Below, in pieces: positions 142-13,150 of a stretch of 32,799 nucleotides of DNA. The DNA lies in the IMG/VR virus record IMGVR_UViG_3300033183_000402, positions 1 through 32,799 of that record. One strand, 5' to 3'. The notes under the pieces are model-generated. The model had not been told where the DNA came from and did no database searches. It saw only the letters and a program-made list of their open reading frames with translations. A program made the translations under genes and the position numbers. Numbering within the stretch: the first letter of the stretch is position 1; every line of letters begins with the position of its first letter. This DNA is from a virus.

Positions 142-1197
142 TTATTTGACGGGTCTAACCACTTGCCCACCGCGTTGATAAACGCGCTTCGTGATTGATG
201 CATTTGCGTGCCCCAACAAGGCTTGTGCTTGAGCCAATTCAAGGTCAGATGCAGCCTTGGGTCGCGCATCCCTGAATTGAAACTTTTGTATGGATTCGGC
301 AAGCTCGGGGTGAGCCTTTGTGGCCGCCGCTCTAGCCGCCACCAAACGCTTGCGATACATGATTTCGGTGAGCTTGGAGCCGCTGTCTGCAGCAATCACA
401 AATGGGCTGAGTTGGTTCTTGCGGTTGGGTATGGTCGCCCGTATTTCGTCCAGCAAGGCGGCTAAACGCCCCTCTATGACGATTTTGAGCATCTTGCCCG
501 TCTTGGCTTGCTTAACCCATACAAAGCCCTCACGCAGGTCAGACCAGCGCATGGCAAATATGTCGGCTGGGCGCTGCCCGGTTAGGTACGCCAACTCCAG
601 CGCAAATCGCAACTCCGGGCTTGAGTGAGCCAACATGGCATCCCAAGTCCGGTCATCCGCAAAATACTCACGCGGCTTTTCGCTGTGCTTCTTTACGCCT
701 CGGCATGGGTTCTCCTTGGCGGTTAGACCCCACTCACGCGCCTTGTTAAAAGCATGGCTGAATAGTGCCAGTTCTCGATTGGCGCGGACAGGTGCGCCTC
801 GGGCGTCTCTGTACTGTGCAATGTGTTGCGGGGTAATGGCATCAACGGCGACATGGGCGAACGCCTTGCGCAGGAACGACAACTCGTACAGGTTGCCTTG
901 TTGGGTGCGTTTCGCCTTCGTGGGAATGATGTCCCGCTCGTAGCGGTCAAAGACCGCGCCCATCGTTCTTGCATCGCGCGGCACTTTACGACCCTGAAGT
1001 TCAGCCCACTTGCGTGGCACTTCAGCTAGGTCGCTGCCCAGTGAAATTTGCACTCGCTTGCCATCGCTGTCAAAGGTTTGGTAGAAGTAGTACGAGCGGA
1101 CTTCCCCTAGTCTGCTTCTGCCACGCTTGTGCTCAACCACACCCGGCGGCAAGGAACGACCGACCGTCTTATTTCGCCCGCTTCCGATTCCGCCCAT
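142..1197 (-). CDS. int: Tyrosine recombinase / phage integrase
   Basis: 351 aa. The C-terminal catalytic region carries RPADIFAMRWSDL and LLGHANASITKRVYQR (the HxxR...Y signature). ATG is preceded by AGGAG with a 7-nt spacer. The gene is adjacent to the att core. Confidence 0.95.
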   Translation of the reverse strand: MGGIGSGRNKTVGRSLPPGVVEHKRGRSRLGEVRSYYFYQTFDSDGKRVQISLGSDLAEVPRKWAELQGRKVPRDARTMGAVFDRYERDIIPTKAKRTQQGNLYELSFLRKAFAHVAVDAITPQHIAQYRDARGAPVRANRELALFSHAFNKAREWGLTAKENPCRGVKKHSEKPREYFADDRTWDAMLAHSSPELRFALELAYLTGQRPADIFAMRWSDLREGFVWVKQAKTGKMLKIVIEGRLAALLDEIRATIPNRKNQLSPFVIAADSGSKLTEIMYRKRLVAARAAATKAHPELAESIQKFQFRDARPKAASDLELAQAQALLGHANASITKRVYQRGGQVVRPVK

Positions 1198-1989: not shown

Positions 1990-3006
1990 TTAAGCAGCTC
2001 CTTTCAGTTGTTGCTGGGCATCAAACCAAGCGTCAAACTCATGACGCTTGAACAGAATCCGCCGCGTGCCGGGTGGCACAAAGAATGGCGGGTACAAGTG
2101 GGGGTGCGACTTCAGTCGGCAGCGCAAATAGTGCTCGGTGCAATGCAGAATCTTTGCCGCAATCCGGATCGTGATGGTTGACATATCGGACGGCACGCGC
2201 TTGCAAACCTTGTACTTTTCCGGCTCGCTCAACTCATCGTTGACCGCCGCAATCGCAGCCTTCTGCTCGCGCGACACGTCAGTCGGTGCCTCGGGTGCGT
2301 CACCACTTTGGTGCTTCTCTAAAAGGGCAGCGACGTACGAGTCCTTGGCCAAGAAAGCTGGAATCCGATGCTGGGACTCCTCGTGTTGCTCGCGCATATT
2401 CTCAGCATCTTCATTGGCCGCCCATGCATGAGCAAGGTAACGGTCATGACGGCGGTCAAGGGCTTTCGCCTCGGCACGAAGCCTATGTAGGTCGGGGTGC
2501 CCATCGCGGCCGTTTGCGATGTCGTCCTCTTTTTCCCGAATCAATAATTCAAGGTCAGATAGACGCTTCGCCACTTCTTCTGCTGCGCCAAAGGCCTCAT
2601 GGGCGTAGTCTTCCGCCCGTTCAACCTCTTGCTCGCTGACGGGTGGGTCAACATCGGGCTTGTTGCCAAAGAGCGAGCGAAGAACCTTGTCCGCCCGACC
2701 TTTGCCCTTGCCGCTGGGACTCGGTTTCACCGCACCTGCTAGTCCGTCATCAAGCACGGCGTCAATGTGGTACGCCTGATTACGCTTGTGTAAGAAGCGT
2801 TTGCAATAGTCCACAGCCTCAAGGCCATCGACGCGGTCGGCGTCAAGCATCAGAACCCCGCGCTGCATCTCAGCCCGAAACGGGCATGGCAGGCCATCTT
2901 GCAGGGCTTTGGCCCGTGTGCTGTAAATCCACTGGGGCGAGCACCCAAGTTTGGACACGGCGACTTCAACTGTGTAGCCGCGTTTTGCAGTTTTCAAATT
3001 TGCCAT
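1990..3006 (-). CDS. Hypothetical protein with HTH-like segments at both termini and an acidic coiled-coil centre
   Basis: 338 aa. N-terminus: YTVEVAVSKLGCSPQWIYS. C-terminus: ITIRIAAKILHCTEHYLRCRL...ILFKRHEFDAWF, which resembles AlpA/excisionase-type HTH. GAGG RBS. Confidence 0.6.
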   Translation of the reverse strand: MANLKTAKRGYTVEVAVSKLGCSPQWIYSTRAKALQDGLPCPFRAEMQRGVLMLDADRVDGLEAVDYCKRFLHKRNQAYHIDAVLDDGLAGAVKPSPSGKGKGRADKVLRSLFGNKPDVDPPVSEQEVERAEDYAHEAFGAAEEVAKRLSDLELLIREKEDDIANGRDGHPDLHRLRAEAKALDRRHDRYLAHAWAANEDAENMREQHEESQHRIPAFLAKDSYVAALLEKHQSGDAPEAPTDVSREQKAAIAAVNDELSEPEKYKVCKRVPSDMSTITIRIAAKILHCTEHYLRCRLKSHPHLYPPFFVPPGTRRILFKRHEFDAWFDAQQQLKGAA

Positions 3007-4464: not shown

Positions 4465-5079
4465 TCACTCAAAAATTCGGGGTTCAGAGCCACTTATGGG
4501 GCCAACTTCAAAGTGGACGACGTGCCCCCACATACGTGAGACCAAGCGGCAAAAGCCCTCTTGCTTGGCGCGTTGCTGTCTTTTGTTTTTGCCCCAGATG
4601 GCTTTGCCCCACAGGGTCAAGCGGTCGTTGCACCAGCTGTATCCCTCAAAGTAGTGGGTGAGGTCGATATCAGTCTTTGCTGCTGCCATCGACATCACCT
4701 CATGCATCGTGTGGCAGGCTGAGTTGCAAGGTGCGTTGAACACATTGCGCCCCGGTGTTCTGCTGTAAAACCGCCAAAGCCGACCGCCGCCAGACTTGCG
4801 TGGCACATAGTGCTGCGCAATCTCAATGGTTGCTGGGCAGTGCCGGAATACATACTGGCTGGCTTCAAACATAGGCGGGCGACGGCGTGTGGGGTTGTAC
4901 TTCACCTCTAGTACCGAGCCATAGTGATGAGCCTGTTGGTAGCCGACCTCTGCGAAAGTCGGGTCGCCATTAGCAAATTCATCAAATGACTCAAGTACGC
5001 GCTGGGTAAGCGGGTTGACGTGAGTCGCCGATTGGTCGAGGTTTAGCTTGGAGCAGCCTCTGTAGTCGACGTAAGGCAT
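4465..5079 (-). CDS. Hypothetical early protein, Cys/His-rich
   Basis: 204 aa with no family recognised. Contains CNSACHTMHE (C-x3-C-H-x2-H) and other conserved-looking Cys/His. Tightly packed in the early-left operon. Confidence 0.7.
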   Translation of the reverse strand: MPYVDYRGCSKLNLDQSATHVNPLTQRVLESFDEFANGDPTFAEVGYQQAHHYGSVLEVKYNPTRRRPPMFEASQYVFRHCPATIEIAQHYVPRKSGGGRLWRFYSRTPGRNVFNAPCNSACHTMHEVMSMAAAKTDIDLTHYFEGYSWCNDRLTLWGKAIWGKNKRQQRAKQEGFCRLVSRMWGHVVHFEVGPISGSEPRIFE

Positions 5080-5093
5080 CTTGGTCTCCTTGG

Positions 5094-5369
5094 TTAGTGA
5101 AAGGTGACGCCGAAAGTCTCGTCGTCCTCAATCATTTGGTCGCCGTCTTTGGGCCAAAGCACGCCGACGGTGTCAACGCCCTCAACCTCTTGCAGGTCGC
5201 GGCAAAGTTGCTTGAGCTGCTCGTGGTCGTACTCCTCACCCGTCATGACGATGGTGCAAAGGCCGTCGTCGTTCAGGGCTATGCCCTCAATGGGCAGGCC
5301 GTTCTCGCTGGCGTGGTAGGCGAGGCTGGCAGCCATGAACTGGGCCTCGGTGACGTGTTGTTTTTGCAT
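5094..5369 (-). CDS. Small, strongly acidic hypothetical protein
   Basis: The track ORF is 5094-5396. I prefer the internal ATG at 5369 because AAGGAG lies 6 nt upstream and this removes the overlap with the upstream gene. 91 aa with about 19 Asp/Glu against 4 Lys/Arg by hand count. Confidence 0.7.
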   Translation of the reverse strand: MQKQHVTEAQFMAASLAYHASENGLPIEGIALNDDGLCTIVMTGEEYDHEQLKQLCRDLQEVEGVDTVGVLWPKDGDQMIEDDETFGVTFH

Positions 5370-5379
5370 AAGGGACTCC

Positions 5380-5706
5380 TTAGTAGGCTTTTTCATGAAT
5401 CAGGGTGGTGCTGGCCCGCCCTGAGCGGTTTTCAAAAAATTGCTCAACGCGCACCACGCCGGTCAGGTTCATCAAGCCCAAGCCGAGGCTGTGCATCTTG
5501 TGGACGTCAGCGCCTGCGGGGTACTCGATGAGGCCGTGCCCGTCGCGGTACTCAACCACGGGGGCCATACGGCACCCGGAGGTTGCGCCCTCGACAAAGG
5601 CGTGAAATGCGATGGCATCGCGGTCAATGGCAGCTGTTACGCTGTCGGGTTGGGAAGGGGCTGCGGTGGCAGCTAGTGGCACGGTTGGTGCGGTTGTCGT
5701 CGTCAT
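5380..5706 (-). CDS. Hypothetical protein, first gene of the early-left operon
   Basis: 108 aa. AAGGAG RBS upstream of the ATG at 5706. No family recognised. Confidence 0.7.
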   Translation of the reverse strand: MTTTTAPTVPLAATAAPSQPDSVTAAIDRDAIAFHAFVEGATSGCRMAPVVEYRDGHGLIEYPAGADVHKMHSLGLGLMNLTGVVRVEQFFENRSGRASTTLIHEKAY

Positions 5707-5759
5707 TTGCTTGGCTCCTTGGTTAAAGCGTCACTACAGGAGGTGCTGTAGTTGGAGCC

Positions 5760-5790
5760 ATTGTATCAATCAAACCGGTACTCTTTGCAA
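5760..5790 (-). promoter_or_regulatory. Candidate early-left promoter (PL-like)
   Basis: On the minus strand: TTGCAA (5790-5785), a 19-nt spacer, then an extended -10 TGATACAAT (5768-5760). The hexamer TACAAT is the same as in the rightward promoter. A palindrome CTACAG-N6-CTGTAG (5733-5750) lies just downstream. Confidence 0.45.
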
Positions 5791-5874: not shown

Positions 5875-5900
5875 AAAAAAAAGACCCCGTTTGGGGTCTT
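5875..5900 (-). terminator. Rho-independent terminator of the repressor gene
   Basis: The minus strand reads AAGACCCC-AAAC-GGGGTCTT followed by TTTTTT. It starts 21 nt after the repressor stop codon. Confidence 0.85.
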
Positions 5901-5920: not shown

Positions 5921-7564
5921 TCAACCAGCTCGCCATTTAACCTCGCCGATGACCGCAAATCGCTCTGATGACTTGCTTATCATCTCGGTTTCGTAGTTCG
6001 GGTTGTCGCTCATCACCACAAAATCACCGTCAATCGACCGCTTGAGCCGCTTGATTTTGAGGTCGTCACCATAGCGAATGGCGTAGACCTTGCCATCTTT
6101 GATTTGGCTCACCGGCTTGCAATCAACCAAAACGATATCGTCGTCGTCCAGGTAGGGCGACATGGAGTCCCCATGCACTCGGAAGCACTTGGCGGTCTTT
6201 GCGTCTATGCCCCGGCTGCTAAAGAAGCTTCGGCGAAACACAAGCGTCTCCTCCTGCACGTCCGGGTGGTACTCGGGCGCTGCGCTGCCCCCGCCAGCGG
6301 CAAAGCGCACCTCGTATAAGCCGACCTCGGCGTAAGTCTCATTGAACTGATCAACGCTGCGTACCGTGGACGGGGCTTCGCCTTCCTCTTGCAAGCCCAT
6401 CTCAAGGGCTTGGGACGAAATCCCAAAGACCATCGCCAGCATCTTGATTGAGGCCGGGGAGGGCGGTGTGTAGCCGTTTTCCCAGTTGGATACCGCCTGA
6501 ACCGACACGTCGAGCAGCTTGGCTACCTCGGTCACGCTCAAGCGGCAGCGCTTGCGCCAGCGGCGGATACGCTTGCCCAGCGCCTCATTGCCCATTTCGT
6601 TGGCTAAATACTTGGCTTGCTGGCTCAGGGCGTCCGTGTCTTGTTGGGTGCTTCCATCGGCTTTTTCCGCAACATCGGCCGCTGCCAACTTAAAGTCGTT
6701 TGCTCGAGTTGGGCGTCCGGTCAGAAGGCGGACGAAATCGTCGAGCCTTTTTTCGTCGGGGTTGGTTTGAAACCAATCGTTAAACAGCTGCTCTAGGTGT
6801 GGGTGCGACGGAAACTCGATGCGCTTGTCTTTGCCTTTGAAGCGCATATACGTGCCGCCGGGGTACCGTTCGGCCAGAATTTCTTTAACCCGGCGAAGCT
6901 GTGCCTCTGCCTCGCCATCAGCGGGGGCTTGCCACTGTTGACTAGCCCACAAATCCTCGACGTAGGCGCTCAGGATGTTGGCCTCAAGTTTCATGCACTG
7001 GGCGGTGACAAGCGTCTCCATGATGGTGTCATCACTGAGCGCGGACTCTGCCGCCGTCGCCACATTGGTCGAGATTAAATACTGCCCGTATATCGAAGCA
7101 GCCTTTTCTTTGACATCCAGCCACGGTGGGTTAGGGGTGCCGAAGTGAATCTCGCACAAAGCACGCCCAACCTCAAGCACTTCATCTTCAGCTAAGTCAA
7201 CCGAGCGCAAGATTTCATACGCATCGCGGTCGCGCTTGCGAAGGGCGTCTTTGTCGGTCAATTCTTTGTAGGTGTACTTGCGTGACTCACTGGGTTTGCT
7301 GTCACCAAACAGGTCAAGCAAGCCCCTGACAACCTGCTTGGCTTCACGCCCGTCGCTTTGGCGGATGCGCTCCTCAATCACATCCAAGCCCGAGCGAATC
7401 ACTTTTTTTGCGTCTGAGTCCCTTGGGAATACGTGGAGGTTGCCCTTCTTTGTCTTTGTCTTTACGCCCTTGGGGTTTTCGCCATCAGCCGTACGGCGCA
7501 CCTTGCTCTCAAGGGGTGCGGCCAAAAAGCCAATCATCGGCTCGTCAGGTTTCTTGGTAGCCAA
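5921..7564 (-). CDS. CI/LexA-type phage repressor (XRE HTH plus S24 peptidase) carrying an N-terminal extension of about 325 aa with unknown function
   Basis: 547 aa.
- HTH around residues 328-385: LGKRIRRWRKRCRLSVTEVAKLLDVSVQAVSNWENG.
- Candidate Ala-Gly autocleavage site in VRFAAGGGS.
- S24 Ser in HGDSMSP and Lys in LKIKRL.
- TTG start with GGAGA 6 nt upstream.
- Residues 1-325 match nothing I recognise. Confidence 0.85.
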   Translation of the reverse strand: MATKKPDEPMIGFLAAPLESKVRRTADGENPKGVKTKTKKGNLHVFPRDSDAKKVIRSGLDVIEERIRQSDGREAKQVVRGLLDLFGDSKPSESRKYTYKELTDKDALRKRDRDAYEILRSVDLAEDEVLEVGRALCEIHFGTPNPPWLDVKEKAASIYGQYLISTNVATAAESALSDDTIMETLVTAQCMKLEANILSAYVEDLWASQQWQAPADGEAEAQLRRVKEILAERYPGGTYMRFKGKDKRIEFPSHPHLEQLFNDWFQTNPDEKRLDDFVRLLTGRPTRANDFKLAAADVAEKADGSTQQDTDALSQQAKYLANEMGNEALGKRIRRWRKRCRLSVTEVAKLLDVSVQAVSNWENGYTPPSPASIKMLAMVFGISSQALEMGLQEEGEAPSTVRSVDQFNETYAEVGLYEVRFAAGGGSAAPEYHPDVQEETLVFRRSFFSSRGIDAKTAKCFRVHGDSMSPYLDDDDIVLVDCKPVSQIKDGKVYAIRYGDDLKIKRLKRSIDGDFVVMSDNPNYETEMISKSSERFAVIGEVKWRAG

Positions 7565-7764
7565 AACAGGTCTCCGTTACGTTCAACTCGCACTGGCGCT
7601 TCTTTGCCGTTGCGTTTAAATGGGCAGGTTACAGTAAAGAAATACTTTACGCAAGCAGATATTAGCGTATTTCCAATGTTTAAATAGCAAAAGAGTACCT
7701 TATCGCTAATTAATCACTACGCGAGTTGTTGACACGCTACAGGTAACCCGTACAATCAGCGGCC
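7565..7764. promoter_or_regulatory. Divergent immunity control region (operators plus PRM-like and PR-like promoters)
   Basis: 200-bp gap between divergent repressor and cro-like genes.
- Palindrome GTAAAG-N5-CTTTAC at 7634-7650.
- Inverted repeat TACGC-N12-GCGTA at 7648-7669.
- Inverted repeat ATTAGCG...CGCTAAT at 7661-7667 and 7704-7710.
- Imperfect palindrome TACAGGTAACCCGTA at 7738-7752.
- Weak leftward promoter candidate TTGCGT (7654-7649), 17 nt, TAACCT (7631-7626). Confidence 0.6.
7729..7756 (+). promoter_or_regulatory. Rightward early promoter (PR-like)
   Basis: TTGACA (7729-7734), 16-nt spacer, TACAAT (7751-7756). The cro-like ATG at 7765 is only 8 nt past the -10 and has no Shine-Dalgarno sequence. 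Confidence 0.7.
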
Positions 7765-7986
7765 ATGACGATTCACGAAATACTCACCCGGGTTGGCTCT
7801 CGCGCCCAGCTGGCCCGCTTAATCGGGGTTTCACCCCAAGCCATGCAGGGATGGGTCACCTCTGGGCAGGTGCCACCCAAGCGGGCGGTGCAAATAGAAG
7901 AAGCCACCGCTGGCTTAATCAAGCGGCATGAGCTGCGCCCCGACTTGTGGACGCCACCCGTGCTGGAGGCAGTGGATGGCCGGTGA
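7765..7986 (+). CDS. Cro/YdaS-type HTH regulator
   Basis: 73 aa. GSRAQLARLIGVSPQAMQGWVTSGQVPPKRAVQIEEATAGLIKRHELRPDLW matches the YdaS/Cro-like family pattern. It is divergent from the repressor. Confidence 0.85.
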   Translation: MTIHEILTRVGSRAQLARLIGVSPQAMQGWVTSGQVPPKRAVQIEEATAGLIKRHELRPDLWTPPVLEAVDGR

Positions 7987-8848
7987 TTGGATAAAACTGC
8001 GGTCTGACCTCATCACCAGTCCGAAAGTTGTCCGCATTTCGTCCGCATTACGGGCGCATAAGTTGACGGTGATTGGCGCATTGCACGCAACATGGGTGCT
8101 GTTTGACGCGCACTCAGAGGACGGGGTGCTCACGGGTTACACGCCCGAAGCCTTGGACGAGTACCTCAATTTACCCGGTTTTGCCGAGGCAATGATGGGG
8201 GTTGATTGGCTCACCAATACCGGCGAAAGCCTTGCCATGCCTAGGTTTGACAACCACAACGGTCAGTCAGCCAAGCGCCGGGCAATGGAGTCTGAGCGCA
8301 AGAGAGCCGTCCGCAAATTGTCCGCATCCAATGCGGACGTTTTGCCCCCTAGAGAAGAGAAGAGAAGAGAAGATATTTCTATAGAGAGAGAAGCGGCGTC
8401 CCCCACAGGGGACGACTCCCCCACCCAGCAGGTGGTTAGGGAAAAGGCACCCCGCTTTTGCATCGACTATGAAGCCATTTGCGAGGCGTTCAACAACGCG
8501 TTTCCTGATGCTAGGCCCGAGACACCCGACGGCTTGGCAACACAAACCCGGGAGCGGTTGCTTGATACCTCCAAGGCGCTGATACGCGAGTTGCTGAGTG
8601 GGGATGAATTGAAATCCGCACGCCAAGAAGCAATCACCGATGCTTGGACGGCCTTCTTTCTCAGGTGCTCGACCTCCGACTTTTTGCGGGGCAAGCGCAG
8701 CTTTGGCGATAAAAAGCCATTTCAGATTGGGCTGGTCAACATCATCAACCGCACCATGTTCCCCAAGGTTTTGAGCGGCGAGGCTTACTTCGATGAAGAC
8801 ACTCGTTCCCTCAAGCGCTGGGTGCAGGAGCAAACGGCTAACGCCTGA
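7976..8848 (+). CDS. Putative replication initiator / replisome-organizer-like protein
   Basis: The track ORF starts at 7928. I prefer the ATG at 7976 because GGAGG lies 6 nt upstream. The N-terminus MAGDWIKLRSDLITSPKVVRIS resembles replisome-organizer N-domains. The gene carries clustered GTCCGCA iterons and a charged linker (REEKRREDISIERE). It occupies the lambda O position after cro. Confidence 0.6.
   Translation: MAGDWIKLRSDLITSPKVVRISSALRAHKLTVIGALHATWVLFDAHSEDGVLTGYTPEALDEYLNLPGFAEAMMGVDWLTNTGESLAMPRFDNHNGQSAKRRAMESERKRAVRKLSASNADVLPPREEKRREDISIEREAASPTGDDSPTQQVVREKAPRFCIDYEAICEAFNNAFPDARPETPDGLATQTRERLLDTSKALIRELLSGDELKSARQEAITDAWTAFFLRCSTSDFLRGKRSFGDKKPFQIGLVNIINRTMFPKVLSGEAYFDEDTRSLKRWVQEQTANA
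8030..8047 (+). repeat. Iteron pair GTCCGCAT (8030-8036 and 8041-8047), 11-bp phasing
   Basis: Sequence GTTGTCCGCATTTCGTCCGCATTA read directly. Confidence 0.7.
8309..8338 (+). repeat. Iteron cluster: GTCCGCA at 8309-8315 and 8320-8326 (11-bp phasing), plus an inverted copy TGCGGAC at 8332-8338
   Basis: Sequence CCGTCCGCAAATTGTCCGCATCCAATGCGGACG read directly. One more copy sits at 8975-8981 in the next gene. Confidence 0.7.
8352..8390 (+). repeat. (GAGAA)x4 polypurine tract followed by an AT-rich stretch and a GA repeat
   Basis: GAGAAGAGAAGAGAAGAGAA (8352-8371), then GATATTTCTATA, then GAGAGAGAAG. It lies immediately 3' of the iteron cluster, inside the linker-coding part of the replication gene. 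Confidence 0.7.
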
Positions 8849-8880
8849 TTGTTTCGCGGCGGCTCTATCAGGAGTCTGCC

Positions 8881-9309
8881 GTGTCCCTCGAGGCACTCAA
8901 GAAATTTCGCACGGGCGGCTACAAGCCCGGGAAAGAAGACGACCTACAGGCGTTGTTTTGCCAAGCCCAAGGTTGTCCGCATAAATGGTCGGTTGATGCT
9001 GGCAATGGGCACTTTTGTGGCGCACACGCATTTGCCGAGCCACGCGAGTGGCCGGTCATCACCGAAGAACTGCAACGCCGCTACTTTGAGCGCCAGTTTG
9101 ACGAGGAATCGCAAGCCAAAGCCCCGCCAGCCACCACGCTGACATGGGCGCAAAAGCGCGAGATTCTCAACCAGCTGCGCGAGGTACTGAGCAGCGAAAC
9201 CAAAGACCACCGGGCATGGGCCAAGCGGCTGCGTGAGCGGGAGGAGGCTGGAGAGACGTTGTCGCTGACTCAGCGGCACGCATGGCGGGAGGCGTTGCGT
9301 GTCACATGA
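8881..9309 (+). CDS. Hypothetical protein with a Cys/His cluster
   Basis: 142 aa. GTG start with AGGAG 6 nt upstream. Contains CQAQGCPHKWSVDAGNGHFCGAH, a zinc-finger-like cluster. No family recognised. Confidence 0.65.
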   Translation: MSLEALKKFRTGGYKPGKEDDLQALFCQAQGCPHKWSVDAGNGHFCGAHAFAEPREWPVITEELQRRYFERQFDEESQAKAPPATTLTWAQKREILNQLREVLSSETKDHRAWAKRLREREEAGETLSLTQRHAWREALRVT

Positions 9310-9518
9310 CTTGTACCCAATGCCAAACCCGGGAGATGGGGACTCCCGGTCGTTTCGACTTGTGCTGCACGAATTGCTGCGCCGACCTGGTGTTGCAGGC
9401 ATACCCAAGCAAACCACTGGCCGAGCGGATGCTTGCAGCCATTGCCTATCGGCGGGACAGGCCGCCACGCGCCGAAATCCTCGAGTGCGTGAGGCAGAAG
9501 TTGGCGAAACGCCCTTGA
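9306..9518 (+). CDS. Small Cys-rich hypothetical protein
   Basis: The track ORF starts at 9282. I prefer the ATG at 9306, which overlaps the upstream stop (ATGA). 70 aa with CTQC...CCTNCC. Confidence 0.55.
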   Translation: MTCTQCQTREMGTPGRFDLCCTNCCADLVLQAYPSKPLAERMLAAIAYRRDRPPRAEILECVRQKLAKRP

Positions 9519-9558: not shown

Positions 9559-9960
9559 ATGAAGTACGAGTGCATCGCGACGACCACGGCTGACCTGGAG
9601 GAGGCCGTCAAGCACGGCACCCAAATGCTGCCGCACGCCAAGAAGCTGTACGTCAAGGTTGAGCCGTTTGCCGACAAGCGCAAGCAGCAACAAAACCGCC
9701 GTTACTGGGCCATGCTGACCGAGATTGAGCACAAGCTCACCATCGAGGGCCAGCAGTACGGCACCGGCACGTGGCACGAGTACTTCAAGGGCACCTTTAT
9801 CGGGTGGGAAGAAAAGCAGATGCCCGACGGGCGTGTGTTTGCCCAGCCAATCAGTTCAACCGACCTGACCGTCAAAGAGTTCGCCGCCTTCATGGAGCGT
9901 GTGGAGAACTGGGCGACTTCCTTGGGGGTTGTTTTTGAAGAACTGCCGGAGGTCGGATGA
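9559..9960 (+). CDS. ninB: NinB/Orf-family recombination mediator
   Basis: 133 aa. RKQQQNRRYWAMLTEIEHKL and SSTDLTVKEFAAFMERVENWA align with lambda NinB RSLDQNRKLWACLGDVSRQV and STSRMRVGEFAELLELIQAF. Confidence 0.75.
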   Translation: MKYECIATTTADLEEAVKHGTQMLPHAKKLYVKVEPFADKRKQQQNRRYWAMLTEIEHKLTIEGQQYGTGTWHEYFKGTFIGWEEKQMPDGRVFAQPISSTDLTVKEFAAFMERVENWATSLGVVFEELPEVG

Positions 9961-10217
9961 ATAACCAACTGACACAGGCAGAGCGGCGCCATCTTGCCCG
10001 GGTGAAGGAGTTGCCGTGTTCGGTGTGCGACCAACCCGGCCCGAGTGAGGCTCACCACATCGTGCAGGGCAACCAGTACACGACGGTTGCGCTGTGCACC
10101 GACTGCCACCGCGGCCCAGTGCTGGGCTGGCACGGTCGGCGTGGGATGTGGCGCGTCAAAAAGATGGACGAGCTTGGCGCGCTTGACGTCACCTTGTCTC
10201 GGCTTCTTAACCCGTGA
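9957..10217 (+). CDS. Small HNH/Ref-like zinc-binding nuclease-family protein
   Basis: 86 aa. HLARVKELPCSVCDQPGPSEAHHIV...ALCTDCHRG has the pattern of Ref-type HNH proteins. ATGA overlap with ninB. Confidence 0.5.
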   Translation: MNNQLTQAERRHLARVKELPCSVCDQPGPSEAHHIVQGNQYTTVALCTDCHRGPVLGWHGRRGMWRVKKMDELGALDVTLSRLLNP

Positions 10218-11573: not shown

Positions 11574-11741
11574 ATGCCACCAGTATCCAAAGCGCAGCAT
11601 CGCTTCATGCAAGCCGCGGCCAACGACCCACAGATGCGAAAGAAGCTCGGCGTCAGCCGTCAGGTCGCGCGTGAGTTCGTAAAGGCCGCCGAGATGGGCC
11701 GTGGCTACCAATCGCTGCCTGCCAAAAAGGGCAAAAAGTAA
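11574..11741 (+). CDS. DUF3008-like small protein
   Basis: The track ORF starts at 11496. I prefer the ATG at 11574, which has GAGG upstream. 55 aa, MPPVSKAQHRFMQAAANDPQMRKKLG..., typical of the small DUF3008 phage proteins. Its stop overlaps the next start (TAATG). Confidence 0.65.
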   Translation: MPPVSKAQHRFMQAAANDPQMRKKLGVSRQVAREFVKAAEMGRGYQSLPAKKGKK

Positions 11742-13150
11742 TGGCTGGCTTGTTTGGCCCTGCTCCAAAAGAGCCGTACTACGCCAAGCGAGTACGTGGC
11801 GAGGTGCCCAAAGGCTACCGGCAAGTCGCTGGTTTTTTGGCTGAGACGCCGGGCTTTGCTGGTGATGCGGTATCCGCGGCTGACCTAATCAGCGGCATCA
11901 AGGACAAAGATTGGCTCAAGGCGAGCTTGGCTGGTGTATCGCTGCTGCCGGGCATCCCCAACCTTGGCGGCATCATCATTGGCCGCAAAGCCAAAACCTT
12001 TGACGAGGGCGCTGCCAAGCAGTACTTGGAGAACAAGACCGCGGGTGCGCCAAAGGAAACCAACTGGGCGCTGACCGGTACGGGGCAGACGCCACTGGGT
12101 GATGTCGTGCAAGAAATTGACGACAGCGGCGCTTATCTCAAAAGCACCATTCCGGTGGTCGAGGAGCCAAAGGTCATTTACTCCCGCCTGGAAGACATGA
12201 CCAAGCGCAACGCGGATGGGTTGGACGAGGTTGCCTACAAGCAGACCCGAGATGAATACGCCCGCCAAATGGATAGGGCGGTACGGCTGGGGAACATCTT
12301 TGAGCACCCTGAGTTGTACAAGGCCTACCCCGAGATTGCTGACATGCGTGTCTCAGGACTGTATGAGACAACGGGTCGGTTGCGTGGTTCTCTTAGCCCG
12401 GGTGAAAACCGCATCCGCGTTAAGTCAAGCGCCGACCCTGACCAGCAGAGGTCAACTCTCTTGCATGAGATACAGCACGCTATTCAGTTCAAAGAGGGCT
12501 TTCCCTTGGGTGGTAACACCTCCCAGGCAGAGGCGGCAGTGGATGCTGCTATGCGACGCGATATGTCTGGCCCAACGCGTGAAAAGGCTGTTTACAACGC
12601 CATCGCTGCTGAGGTAGGGCAGGTTAACCGCGTGCGGTACGCCCGGCGACTTAAGGAACTCTCTACCTCCGAGACCATCACTCCGCGACGTATTTTCAAT
12701 CAGGCGGGATGGTACGAACACGGTGACAAGATTCGCCAAGAGTTGGGGCCGATGCCCAAGCGCTCGGGTGAGGAGCAAAAGCGCTGGCTGCGGGATGCCG
12801 CGGATAGGCTGTATCGCCACGAGGATGCCAAAGGCCGTTTTGACAGCCCGTACCACGATTTATCTGACCGTGACCTAGTAAACATGCTCCGCAGGCAAGA
12901 GCGCAAGCTGGACAAGCAGCAGCCCAAGCTTAAGGAGTTTTTTGACCAAGAGAACCGTTGGCGGCGCATCAACCAGTTAGGCCCGGGCGAGAAGTACCTG
13001 GCGCATGGTGGTGAGGCTGAGTCACGGCTGGTGCAGGCTCGCCGGGATTTGAACCCGGTCGAGCGCAAGGTTTACTACCCGTTTGGTGAGCGGGATGCGG
13101 GTTACCCGTACGCGTATGACATGTCGCCATCGCTTTTGTTTAGACCCTGA
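11741..13150 (+). CDS. Hypothetical protein with an HExxH zincin-type motif
   Basis: 469 aa. STLLHEIQHAIQFKEG is encoded at about 12464-12478. The rest is not recognised. It is translationally coupled to the DUF3008 gene and lies upstream of the terminase genes. Confidence 0.7.
   Translation: MAGLFGPAPKEPYYAKRVRGEVPKGYRQVAGFLAETPGFAGDAVSAADLISGIKDKDWLKASLAGVSLLPGIPNLGGIIIGRKAKTFDEGAAKQYLENKTAGAPKETNWALTGTGQTPLGDVVQEIDDSGAYLKSTIPVVEEPKVIYSRLEDMTKRNADGLDEVAYKQTRDEYARQMDRAVRLGNIFEHPELYKAYPEIADMRVSGLYETTGRLRGSLSPGENRIRVKSSADPDQQRSTLLHEIQHAIQFKEGFPLGGNTSQAEAAVDAAMRRDMSGPTREKAVYNAIAAEVGQVNRVRYARRLKELSTSETITPRRIFNQAGWYEHGDKIRQELGPMPKRSGEEQKRWLRDAADRLYRHEDAKGRFDSPYHDLSDRDLVNMLRRQERKLDKQQPKLKEFFDQENRWRRINQLGPGEKYLAHGGEAESRLVQARRDLNPVERKVYYPFGERDAGYPYAYDMSPSLLFRP

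Follow-up and report, generated by a model that had tools for sequence, protein, structure and literature searches.

A CI-type phage repressor with an apparently orphan, separately exchangeable N-terminal domain

The CI-type repressor is the textbook example of a genetic switch, and its layout of two domains is generally assumed. Such repressors are used as a marker of SOS-inducible prophages, and in large surveys a CI counts as "complete" when it has the two-domain form (bioRxiv 10.64898/2026.06.25.734096). What, then, is to be made of a gene in which such a complete repressor is preceded, in the same reading frame, by some 323 further residues? The gene in question lies at 5921..7564 on the minus strand of IMG/VR virus record IMGVR_UViG_3300033183_000402, of which positions 1 to 32,799 were analysed (this whole stretch of 32,799 nucleotides is called the window throughout). 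We are almost certain that it specifies one polypeptide carrying a complete CI switch and an additional N-terminal module. The module is under selection at the protein level and is exchanged separately from the repressor to which it is joined; its role is a matter of graded likelihoods, among which we tentatively favour regulation of the repressor itself.

A complete CI repressor behind an N-terminal extension

The gene is one open reading frame of 547 amino acids (aa) plus stop, initiated at a TTG. Since the stop-to-stop frame opens at 7576, just 4 codons 5′ of this TTG, a longer start is impossible. The initial annotation had proposed a complete CI from about residue 324 onwards, preceded in frame by an extension and expressed from TTG 7564 behind a GGAGA ribosome-binding site, with a terminator of its own. 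Each of these elements was recovered:

5921..7564, minus strand: whole open reading frame, CI-type repressor plus N-terminal extension; full-length homologues are P0002 (562 aa) and P0003 (572 aa)
7571..7575, minus strand: Shine-Dalgarno sequence GGAGA; duplex with the anti-Shine-Dalgarno sequence of -6.6 kcal/mol, the same in three alleles
7562..7564, minus strand: TTG start codon; TTG in all three alleles
6593..6595, minus strand: Met324 (ATG), the ancestral CI start, invariant; aligns to Met1 of P22 C2
6410..6568, minus strand: XRE-type helix-turn-helix (HTH), residues 333-385; Pfam HTH_3, E 7.5e-13; aligns to the N-terminal domain of P22 C2
6293..6298, minus strand: Ala423-Gly424 within FAAGGGS, predicted self-cleavage site; F421, A423, G424 and G426 invariant
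5939..6307, minus strand: Peptidase_S24, residues 420-542; Pfam PF00717, E 9.5e-19
6164-6166, minus strand: Ser467 (GDSM), invariant in the three family members
6050-6052, minus strand: Lys505 (KIKRL), invariant in the three family members
5881..5900, minus strand: intrinsic terminator directly after the stop codon, an 8-bp stem then a T-run, from a sequence scan
7626..7654, minus strand: candidate weak cI-side promoter, TTGCGT-17 nt-TAACCT, from the three-phage alignment

The cI-side promoter, kept in the three phages, scored below the scan threshold and is offered here as a candidate only. The cI transcript reaches its terminator with no further gene on the way.

Residues 324-547 (224 aa) make up a canonical lambdoid immunity repressor, with an XRE-type HTH, an Ala-Gly site and an S24 Ser/Lys dyad. 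The PHROGs family phrog_4, "transcriptional repressor," covers residues 321-544 at E 3e-41. The HTH is N-terminal to the S24 domain, as in CI/LexA-type proteins generally; the predicted scissile bond lies 44 residues N-terminal of Ser467, where a distance of about 35-45 is expected; the S24 part aligns with Escherichia coli LexA 112-190, a stretch that includes both Ser119 and Lys156; and the gene stands divergent from cro in an immunity region, as members of this family do, with the operators left undefined by our searches. Size is another matter. Repressors of this type usually have about 200-290 aa in two domains with the HTH at the N-terminus, and here there are 547 aa with the HTH internal. 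The CI part taken alone, as the initial annotation had also said, is of normal repressor size: all 83 of its nearest CI relatives fall between 201 and 296 aa. With every other sequence criterion that we applied pointing the same way, the departure in size is a variant feature and no ground for leaving the CI/LexA family. Judged from sequence, then, the protein is a member of that family that carries a new orphan domain family. By analogy with its relatives, it would be expected to undergo RecA*-stimulated autocleavage at Ala423/Gly424 and to lose repression on DNA damage.

The extended frame is coding and is best read as one product

A word-indexed search of 5.8 billion proteins was made twice, once with the full protein and once with the extension alone, and returned two relatives only, P0002 and P0003, both at 100% query cover and 45-48% identity. 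The homologous loci, designated L001 and L002, come from two other assemblies (both from ENA; the window is from JGI), which brings the total to three metagenomic phages. All three known family members carry the full-length fusion, and both homologues are TTG-initiated behind an identical Shine-Dalgarno sequence.

These alleles dispose of the most prosaic account of the long frame, namely that it is an artefact of frameshift, misassembly or chance, or that its upstream part is non-coding. The extension has a ratio of nonsynonymous to synonymous substitution rates (dN/dS) of 0.23-0.37 overall, as against 0.07-0.20 for the CI part, and its synonymous sites are saturated, with a proportion of synonymous differences (pS) of 0.65-0.70. 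It is under purifying selection and is true coding sequence: some 323 extra codons held open in three sequences with saturated synonymous sites and dN/dS below 1 exclude both chance and sequencing error. Moreover, the three assemblies keep the frame over 547-572 codons at 45-48% identity, dN/dS stays below 0.4 where dS is saturated, a core of 120 residues aligns free of gaps, and conservation of the Shine-Dalgarno sequence and TTG is confined to the 5′ end. Nothing was found in favour of an artefact, the first thing to suspect of any unusually long metagenomic frame, which is scarcely credible and may be regarded as refuted for practical purposes. The split into two ordinary genes by a frameshift or stop, which had been named as the outcome that would overturn the fusion, is not what these independently assembled and deeply diverged alleles present.

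Whether the old repressor is also made on its own depends on Met324. This residue begins the stretch Met-Gly-x-Glu-Ala-Leu-Gly-Lys-Arg-Ile-Arg, which aligns with Met1-Asn-Thr-Gln-Leu-Met-Gly-Glu-Arg-Ile-Arg of P22 C2, and the alignment is the same from the single sequence and from a 3-sequence profile. Among the 40 nearest CIs of normal size, 39 have 0-10 residues (mostly 3-8) ahead of the equivalent position and 1 has 34. Since Met324 corresponds to the first residue of P22 C2, the relatives start there and they are of normal size, the extension must have been added in front of an ordinary cI gene. Signals for renewed initiation at this point are missing. In all three alleles Met324 lacks a preceding Shine-Dalgarno sequence, the duplex energies lying between -0.2 and -1.5 kcal/mol, in agreement with the earlier remark that the internal Met at 6595 lacks a ribosome-binding site; the -10-like positions upstream (TATTTA, TTTTTA and TTCCTG in the three alleles) are not conserved; and a promoter scan of the minus strand within the frame gave no promoter-like site. 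Synonymous sites of codons 311-325 are as diverged as elsewhere in the frame, and hence no conserved nucleotide signal is hidden there. An internal start at Met324 was rejected for want of a Shine-Dalgarno sequence and a conserved promoter, and nested isoforms of the phiC31 type, in which the internal start has signals of its own, are not indicated for the same reasons. With a conserved Shine-Dalgarno sequence at the TTG alone, none at Met324 and no minus-strand promoter inside the frame, a single long product from TTG 7564 is the best reading.

It can still be argued that one frame serves two isoforms, the long one from TTG 7564 and a 224-aa CI from Met324 on a leaderless or otherwise Shine-Dalgarno-independent transcript, the extension being used in one phase only, establishment or maintenance. 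Met324 is invariant and stands exactly at the ancestral CI start, and the lambda cI mRNA from PRM is itself leaderless, so that a missing Shine-Dalgarno sequence is no bar to internal initiation. Set against the weak duplexes, the unconserved -10-like positions, the empty promoter scan and the diverged synonymous sites, we consider such an arrangement improbable. It could be combined with any reading of what the extension does.

A separately exchangeable module of an orphan family

The extension had been described as unassignable to any family, and library searches bear this out. Residues 1-325 have no match at E<=1 in Pfam, PHROGs, PADLOC or NCBIfam, and against PDB sequences they give noise-level matches alone (E 0.14 and 0.77). 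Permissive scans at E<=10, made with each allele separately, produced single-allele matches only, at E 0.23-0.32, which is again noise. In PADLOC-DB, 0 families reach E<=1 for residues 1-325, and the matches of the full protein all fall on the HTH. Neither a second HTH nor any other DNA-binding family was found by library scans of residues 1-323, and the libraries scanned revealed no recognisable effector, nucleotide-binding, transmembrane, enzyme or defence signature in the extension. An exhaustive comparison of a profile of the three extensions with 1.84 billion representative proteins returned the family itself and nothing else; back-translated pattern scans of viral, genome and metagenome contigs added no further members. 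Related phages sought through the conserved replication protein were absent from viral and genome contigs. In metagenomes, 80 loci with related initiators (28-66% identity) were found, 6 of them with an S24 CI upstream, all of 228-283 aa; the extension was found at none of the 80 loci and on none of the six CIs. The extension is fused in both homologues and absent from the six related S24 CIs, and neither these loci nor the 83 nearest CIs bear out the concern, raised in the initial annotation, that it is a known domain routinely fused to S24 repressors. The window holds no paralogue of the extension, which also lacks internal repeats, and a full-text literature search of limited extent found no description of a CI or S24 repressor with a long N-terminal extension. 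On present sequence data, the extension is an orphan family with three members.

The three phages are 90-100% identical at the nucleotide level through cro and the replication genes (window 7800-9500), and the homologues share the synteny of a divergent Cro, a 290-aa initiator, and then 142-aa and 83-aa proteins, with NinB present in L001 as well. Against this uniform background, the two parts of the repressor gene have different histories, as the aa identities indicate:

Extension: window vs L001, 44%; window vs L002, 39%; L001 vs L002, 52%
CI part: window vs L001, 62%; window vs L002, 61%; L001 vs L002, 95%

For L001 and L002, the CI part has a pS of 0.28 and a proportion of nonsynonymous differences (pN) of 0.02, and the extension a pS of 0.69 and a pN of 0.33, with the switch in divergence falling within a few codons of Met324. 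There are, in other words, three alleles of the extension and two of CI among three phages. Because L001 and L002 have nearly the same CI, different extensions and near-identical flanks, the extension is exchanged as a module of its own, whose boundary falls on the ancestral CI start codon.

The beginning of the reading frame lies in a stretch of nucleotide conservation:

7520..7650, minus strand: nucleotide-conserved block, about 87-92% identity, between two divergent islands, from the three-phage alignment

This block contains the -10 of the candidate cI promoter, a leader of about 60 nt, the ribosome-binding site, the TTG and the first 17 or so codons; the pS of codons 1-19 is 0.30-0.38, as against about 0.7 elsewhere. 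A recombination linker would account for it, as would conserved signals for expression. A structured leader RNA or riboswitch was considered and rejected in favour of conserved backbone or initiation signals, there being no Rfam match and a folding z-score of 0.01; covariation support is practically absent, 1 of the 33 predicted pairs being compensatory among three near-identical sequences. Farther along, the NinB region (9574-10193) of the window is 68-78% identical to that of L001 and L002, which agree with each other at 99-100% identity. The region forms a second mosaic island and follows the CI allele, not the extension allele.

A module that moves so freely invites the thought that it has nothing to do with repression and that the extension is an autonomous accessory function expressed in the lysogen, such as superinfection exclusion or defence, by the logic of rexAB. 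Fusion to CI would confine it to lysogens and have it switched off or degraded at CI cleavage, leaving the phage's own lytic growth unharmed. Exchange independent of CI in otherwise near-identical phages speaks for this account. So do the faster evolution of the extension than of CI by the dN/dS values above, a cI transcript that has no other gene before its terminator, and the failure to find homologues among 1.84 billion representative proteins, as is often the case for conflict genes that evolve fast. The silence of PADLOC, Pfam and PHROGs, and the want of effector, nucleotide-binding or transmembrane features, speak against it. Moreover, an autonomous function would need neither conservation of the protein at the junction with CI nor fusion in every allele, and mosaic exchange is general in lambdoid phages and is by itself no signal of an arms race. 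On balance we regard an exclusion or defence function as unlikely, if a serious contender.

A proposed second input on the repressor

The initial annotation had put forward a second sensor, exclusion and oligomerisation as options for the extension, and each keeps some likelihood here. The internal layout of the extension is the starting point for the regulatory reading, which we prefer. Five segments can be distinguished:

7508..7564, minus strand: codons 1-19, conserved peptide MATKKxDEPMIGFLxxxLE, 79-89% identity in the alignment of three
7280..7507, minus strand: codons 20-95, a basic, indel-rich linker, probably disordered; predicted local distance difference test score (pLDDT) 24-35, dN/dS 0.4-0.6
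6920..7279, minus strand: codons 96-215, helical core without gaps, 46-72% identity, dN/dS 0.08-0.31
6629..6919, minus strand: codons 216-312, variable part with indels, 21-39% identity, predicted beta-hairpin, from alignment and model
6596..6628, minus strand: codons 313-323, junction helix LSxxAxxLANE; protein conserved, synonymous sites diverged

Residues 21-40 carry a net charge of +5 to +6 in the three alleles despite the divergence of their sequences, and across residues 313-330, where the extension runs into the HTH, the protein is conserved while synonymous sites differ. The extension has exactly two cysteines, Cys137 and Cys190, both in the core and both invariant across the three alleles, as is His254-x-His256 in the variable part; with three sequences to compare, a metal or redox site formed by these residues is only a hint. 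AlphaFold2 models from 3-sequence alignments, with a pLDDT of 41.6 for residues 1-325 and 49.0 for residues 95-325, are both almost wholly helical and of low confidence, with long helical hairpins predicted at 148-171 and 178-207. Given the low pLDDT and no Foldseek match at E<=0.001, we claim no fold for the extension.

From this layout, we tentatively take the extension to be a regulatory module that binds a partner or ligand and is coupled to the repressor's DNA-binding domain, a reading to which we give somewhat less than an even chance. Three considerations lead to it: the lack of an enzymatic or defence signature (the extension is probably not an enzyme), a layout of docking type, and the conserved junction into HTH helix 1. 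To these may be added general experience with XRE-family HTH regulators, in which extra domains are usually sensors or oligomerisation domains, as in the helical receptors of RNPP/AimR and in SaPI Stl. In the lysogen, the CI part would dimerise through its S24 domain and occupy operators between 7655 and 7760, and probably also near 5733-5752. RecA*-stimulated self-cleavage at Ala423/Gly424 would then yield a fragment of about 46 kDa with the extension and HTH and a C-terminal fragment of about 14 kDa, and the separation of the former from the dimerisation domain would induce the phage. Onto this switch the extension would add a second, allele-specific input, be it an antirepressor, a host or phage protein, or a metal or redox signal at Cys137/Cys190/His254/His256. 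The succession of N-terminal peptide, basic disordered tether, helical core, and junction helix leading straight into the HTH would suit a docking module. Being part of the CI polypeptide, the extension would be made only alongside CI and would lose its dimeric, operator-bound context upon cleavage. N-terminal fragments of CI and LexA can still repress after cleavage, and ClpX(P) is needed for their removal (PMC10584840); that need would apply more strongly to a fragment of about 46 kDa.

Several points weigh against a regulatory module. The partner or ligand is hypothetical; the module could pass freely from one CI background to another just as well if it acted autonomously and had no part in regulating CI; and a module that stays on the HTH after cleavage would be oddly placed for a sensor of induction. 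Only three sequences are known, so that invariance of a residue is weak evidence, and with the low-confidence models, the best Foldseek hits are at E 0.43 (PDB) and 0.16 (BFVD), with TM-scores below 0.3. Moreover, the window contains no SOS box above chance and no candidate antirepressor gene. A LexA-controlled antirepressor as the partner was rejected on this account, no antirepressor family having been recognised among the open reading frames scanned.

A bolder version of the regulatory reading, rather unlikely in our view, is that the extension represents a new kind of exchangeable "specificity cassette," an orphan domain for sensing or docking that places a lineage-specific second control over the RecA/SOS input. 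This added layer could be a private induction signal, resistance to the antirepressors of relatives, or recognition of a superinfecting phage; if it is real, immunity or induction specificity can evolve with the DNA-binding domain unchanged. In any case, a domain of about 35 kDa, under selection, exchangeable and without relatives, stands here in front of a complete switch, and this implies that the lysis-lysogeny decision, or phenotypes specific to the lysogen, may be modified by a module added onto the repressor itself. Should either a second input or an exclusion function be confirmed, the extension would be a new protein family and a new wiring of prophage induction or immunity; should deletion of the module have no phenotype, it would be a curiosity of a rare freshwater phage group. 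L001 and L002, with the same CI and different cassettes, amount to a natural domain swap, which makes the function directly testable.

The immunity region

The window is essentially a whole temperate phage genome, and the repressor gene faces a near-consensus promoter and a cro gene across the intergenic region:

7729..7756, plus strand: PR-like promoter TTGACA-16-TACAAT, 11/12 consensus matches, from a promoter scan; drives the divergent cro
7765..7986, plus strand: cro, P22_Cro/YdaS family, from library scans; divergent from the repressor gene

The -10 of PR ends 8 nt ahead of the cro ATG (7765), so the cro mRNA would be leaderless or nearly so. Cro is 96-97% identical among the three phages (window 7765-7986; L001 2969-3190; L002 1666-1923), while the DNA-binding region of the window's CI part (5921-6595) is only 62-64% identical to those of L001 and L002, and the operator region (7655-7774) about 64%. 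It follows that cro and cI are evolutionarily uncoupled in these phages, whereas in lambdoid immunity modules of the classical type both genes and the operators change together.

Operators proved elusive. Repeat and palindrome searches turned up operator candidates but no consistent operator family. One candidate, the pattern TACGC-N12-GCGTA at 7648-7669, occurs at chance level genome-wide. A perfect 20-bp palindrome, ACTACAGGAGGTGCTGTAGT, lies at 5733-5752 and is unique in the window; it is situated between a TACAAT -10-like hexamer (5760-5765, minus strand) and the ribosome-binding site and ATG of the first leftward gene (5706), and it may be regarded as a candidate OL operator. Its half-site, CTACAGG, recurs in the spacer of PR at 7736-7742.

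Between cro and cI, at roughly 7690-7712, an AT-rich patch of about 16-20 bp differs in all three phages. As L001 and L002 have a CI DNA-binding domain in common, the patch tracks the extension allele and not the HTH allele, a weak correlation with n=3. This observation suits a further interpretation, in which the extension is a second DNA-contacting or oligomerising module that takes part in operator recognition, cooperativity, OL-OR looping or immunity specificity. The basic tether, retained in all alleles, and the predicted helical hairpins would be compatible with contacts of this kind, and so would the -35 elements of PR and the candidate cI promoter, which are about 75 bp, unusually far, apart. 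However, residues 1-323 contain no HTH or other recognised DNA-binding family, no operators were defined by the searches, and the patch correlation amounts to three sequences. In addition, a module kept on the HTH fragment would oppose induction unless the fragment were actively removed (PMC10584840). A direct role in DNA binding or oligomerisation is, in our judgement, unlikely, though a genuine rival, and we return to the regulatory module as the reading to carry forward.

Genome context

On the left arm are an integrase (142-1197, minus strand), SSB, a RecE/YqaJ-type exonuclease and Erf; to the right of the repressor follow cro, a phrog_2509 replication initiator, NinB, terminase, portal, scaffold and the major head protein, with lysozyme at the end. 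This integrase-to-lysozyme context, together with the divergent cro and PR, puts the fusion gene at the exact lambdoid cI position. The portal protein is 57-62% identical to those of freshwater-spring phages and 52% identical to that of Methylophilales phage Venkman.

Several other genes of the window are obscure as well. The first leftward open reading frames on the PL side (4465-5706, minus strand; 108, 100 and 204 aa) match nothing in Pfam, PHROGs or PADLOC. One of 338 aa at 1990-3006 (minus strand) has weak, sub-threshold Pfam HTH matches, one sub-threshold PHROG match and no PADLOC match. All of these are further orphan early genes. Directly 5′ of terminase, a 469-aa frame at 11741-13150 (plus strand) matches PHROGs families of unknown function, and one stretch of some 80 residues resembles portions of the very large virion proteins found in Pseudomonas F116-like phages and EBPR podovirus 3.

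Comparison with known systems

Set beside lambdoid CI, P22 C2 and LexA, residues 324-547 have everything that would be expected, namely HTH_3, the Ala-Gly site, Ser467 and Lys505, at a spacing close to that of LexA, and the gene, like lambdoid cI, is divergent from cro and PR and ends in its own terminator. The DNA-binding fragment left by cleavage, however, would be about 423 residues long here, as against about 90-110 in CI, P22 C2 and LexA. Expression differs too: the lambda PRM transcript is leaderless, whereas the present gene has a long leader, a Shine-Dalgarno sequence and a TTG start.

With lambda rexAB, the fusion has in common that an extra function would be made only when the immunity repressor is, both coming from the maintenance transcript. 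Yet in lambda that function has a separate downstream gene, and the present extension precedes CI within one polypeptide; nor does the extension have any sequence relation to RexA/B or to any PADLOC model.

The repressor of Streptomyces phage phiC31 (gene c) is also large, and it is made as nested in-frame isoforms with their own promoters and starts and without an S24 domain. The likeness lies in a large open reading frame with an N-terminal region ahead of the DNA-binding part and an in-frame internal Met; unlike phiC31, no internal Shine-Dalgarno sequence or conserved promoter was found here.

There is also a parallel in architecture with SaPI Stl and the AimR/RNPP regulators, where an XRE-type HTH is likewise joined to a helical domain of about 200-300 residues. 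In those proteins, the helical domain binds a protein or peptide and decides lysis/lysogeny or derepression. No sequence similarity or confident structural similarity of the extension to regulators of this type was found, and the order of parts is reversed: in Stl and AimR/RNPP, the HTH sits at the N-terminus with the sensor C-terminal to it, and an S24 self-cleavage module is lacking, whereas here the additional domain comes first and the HTH behind it is followed by a complete S24 domain.

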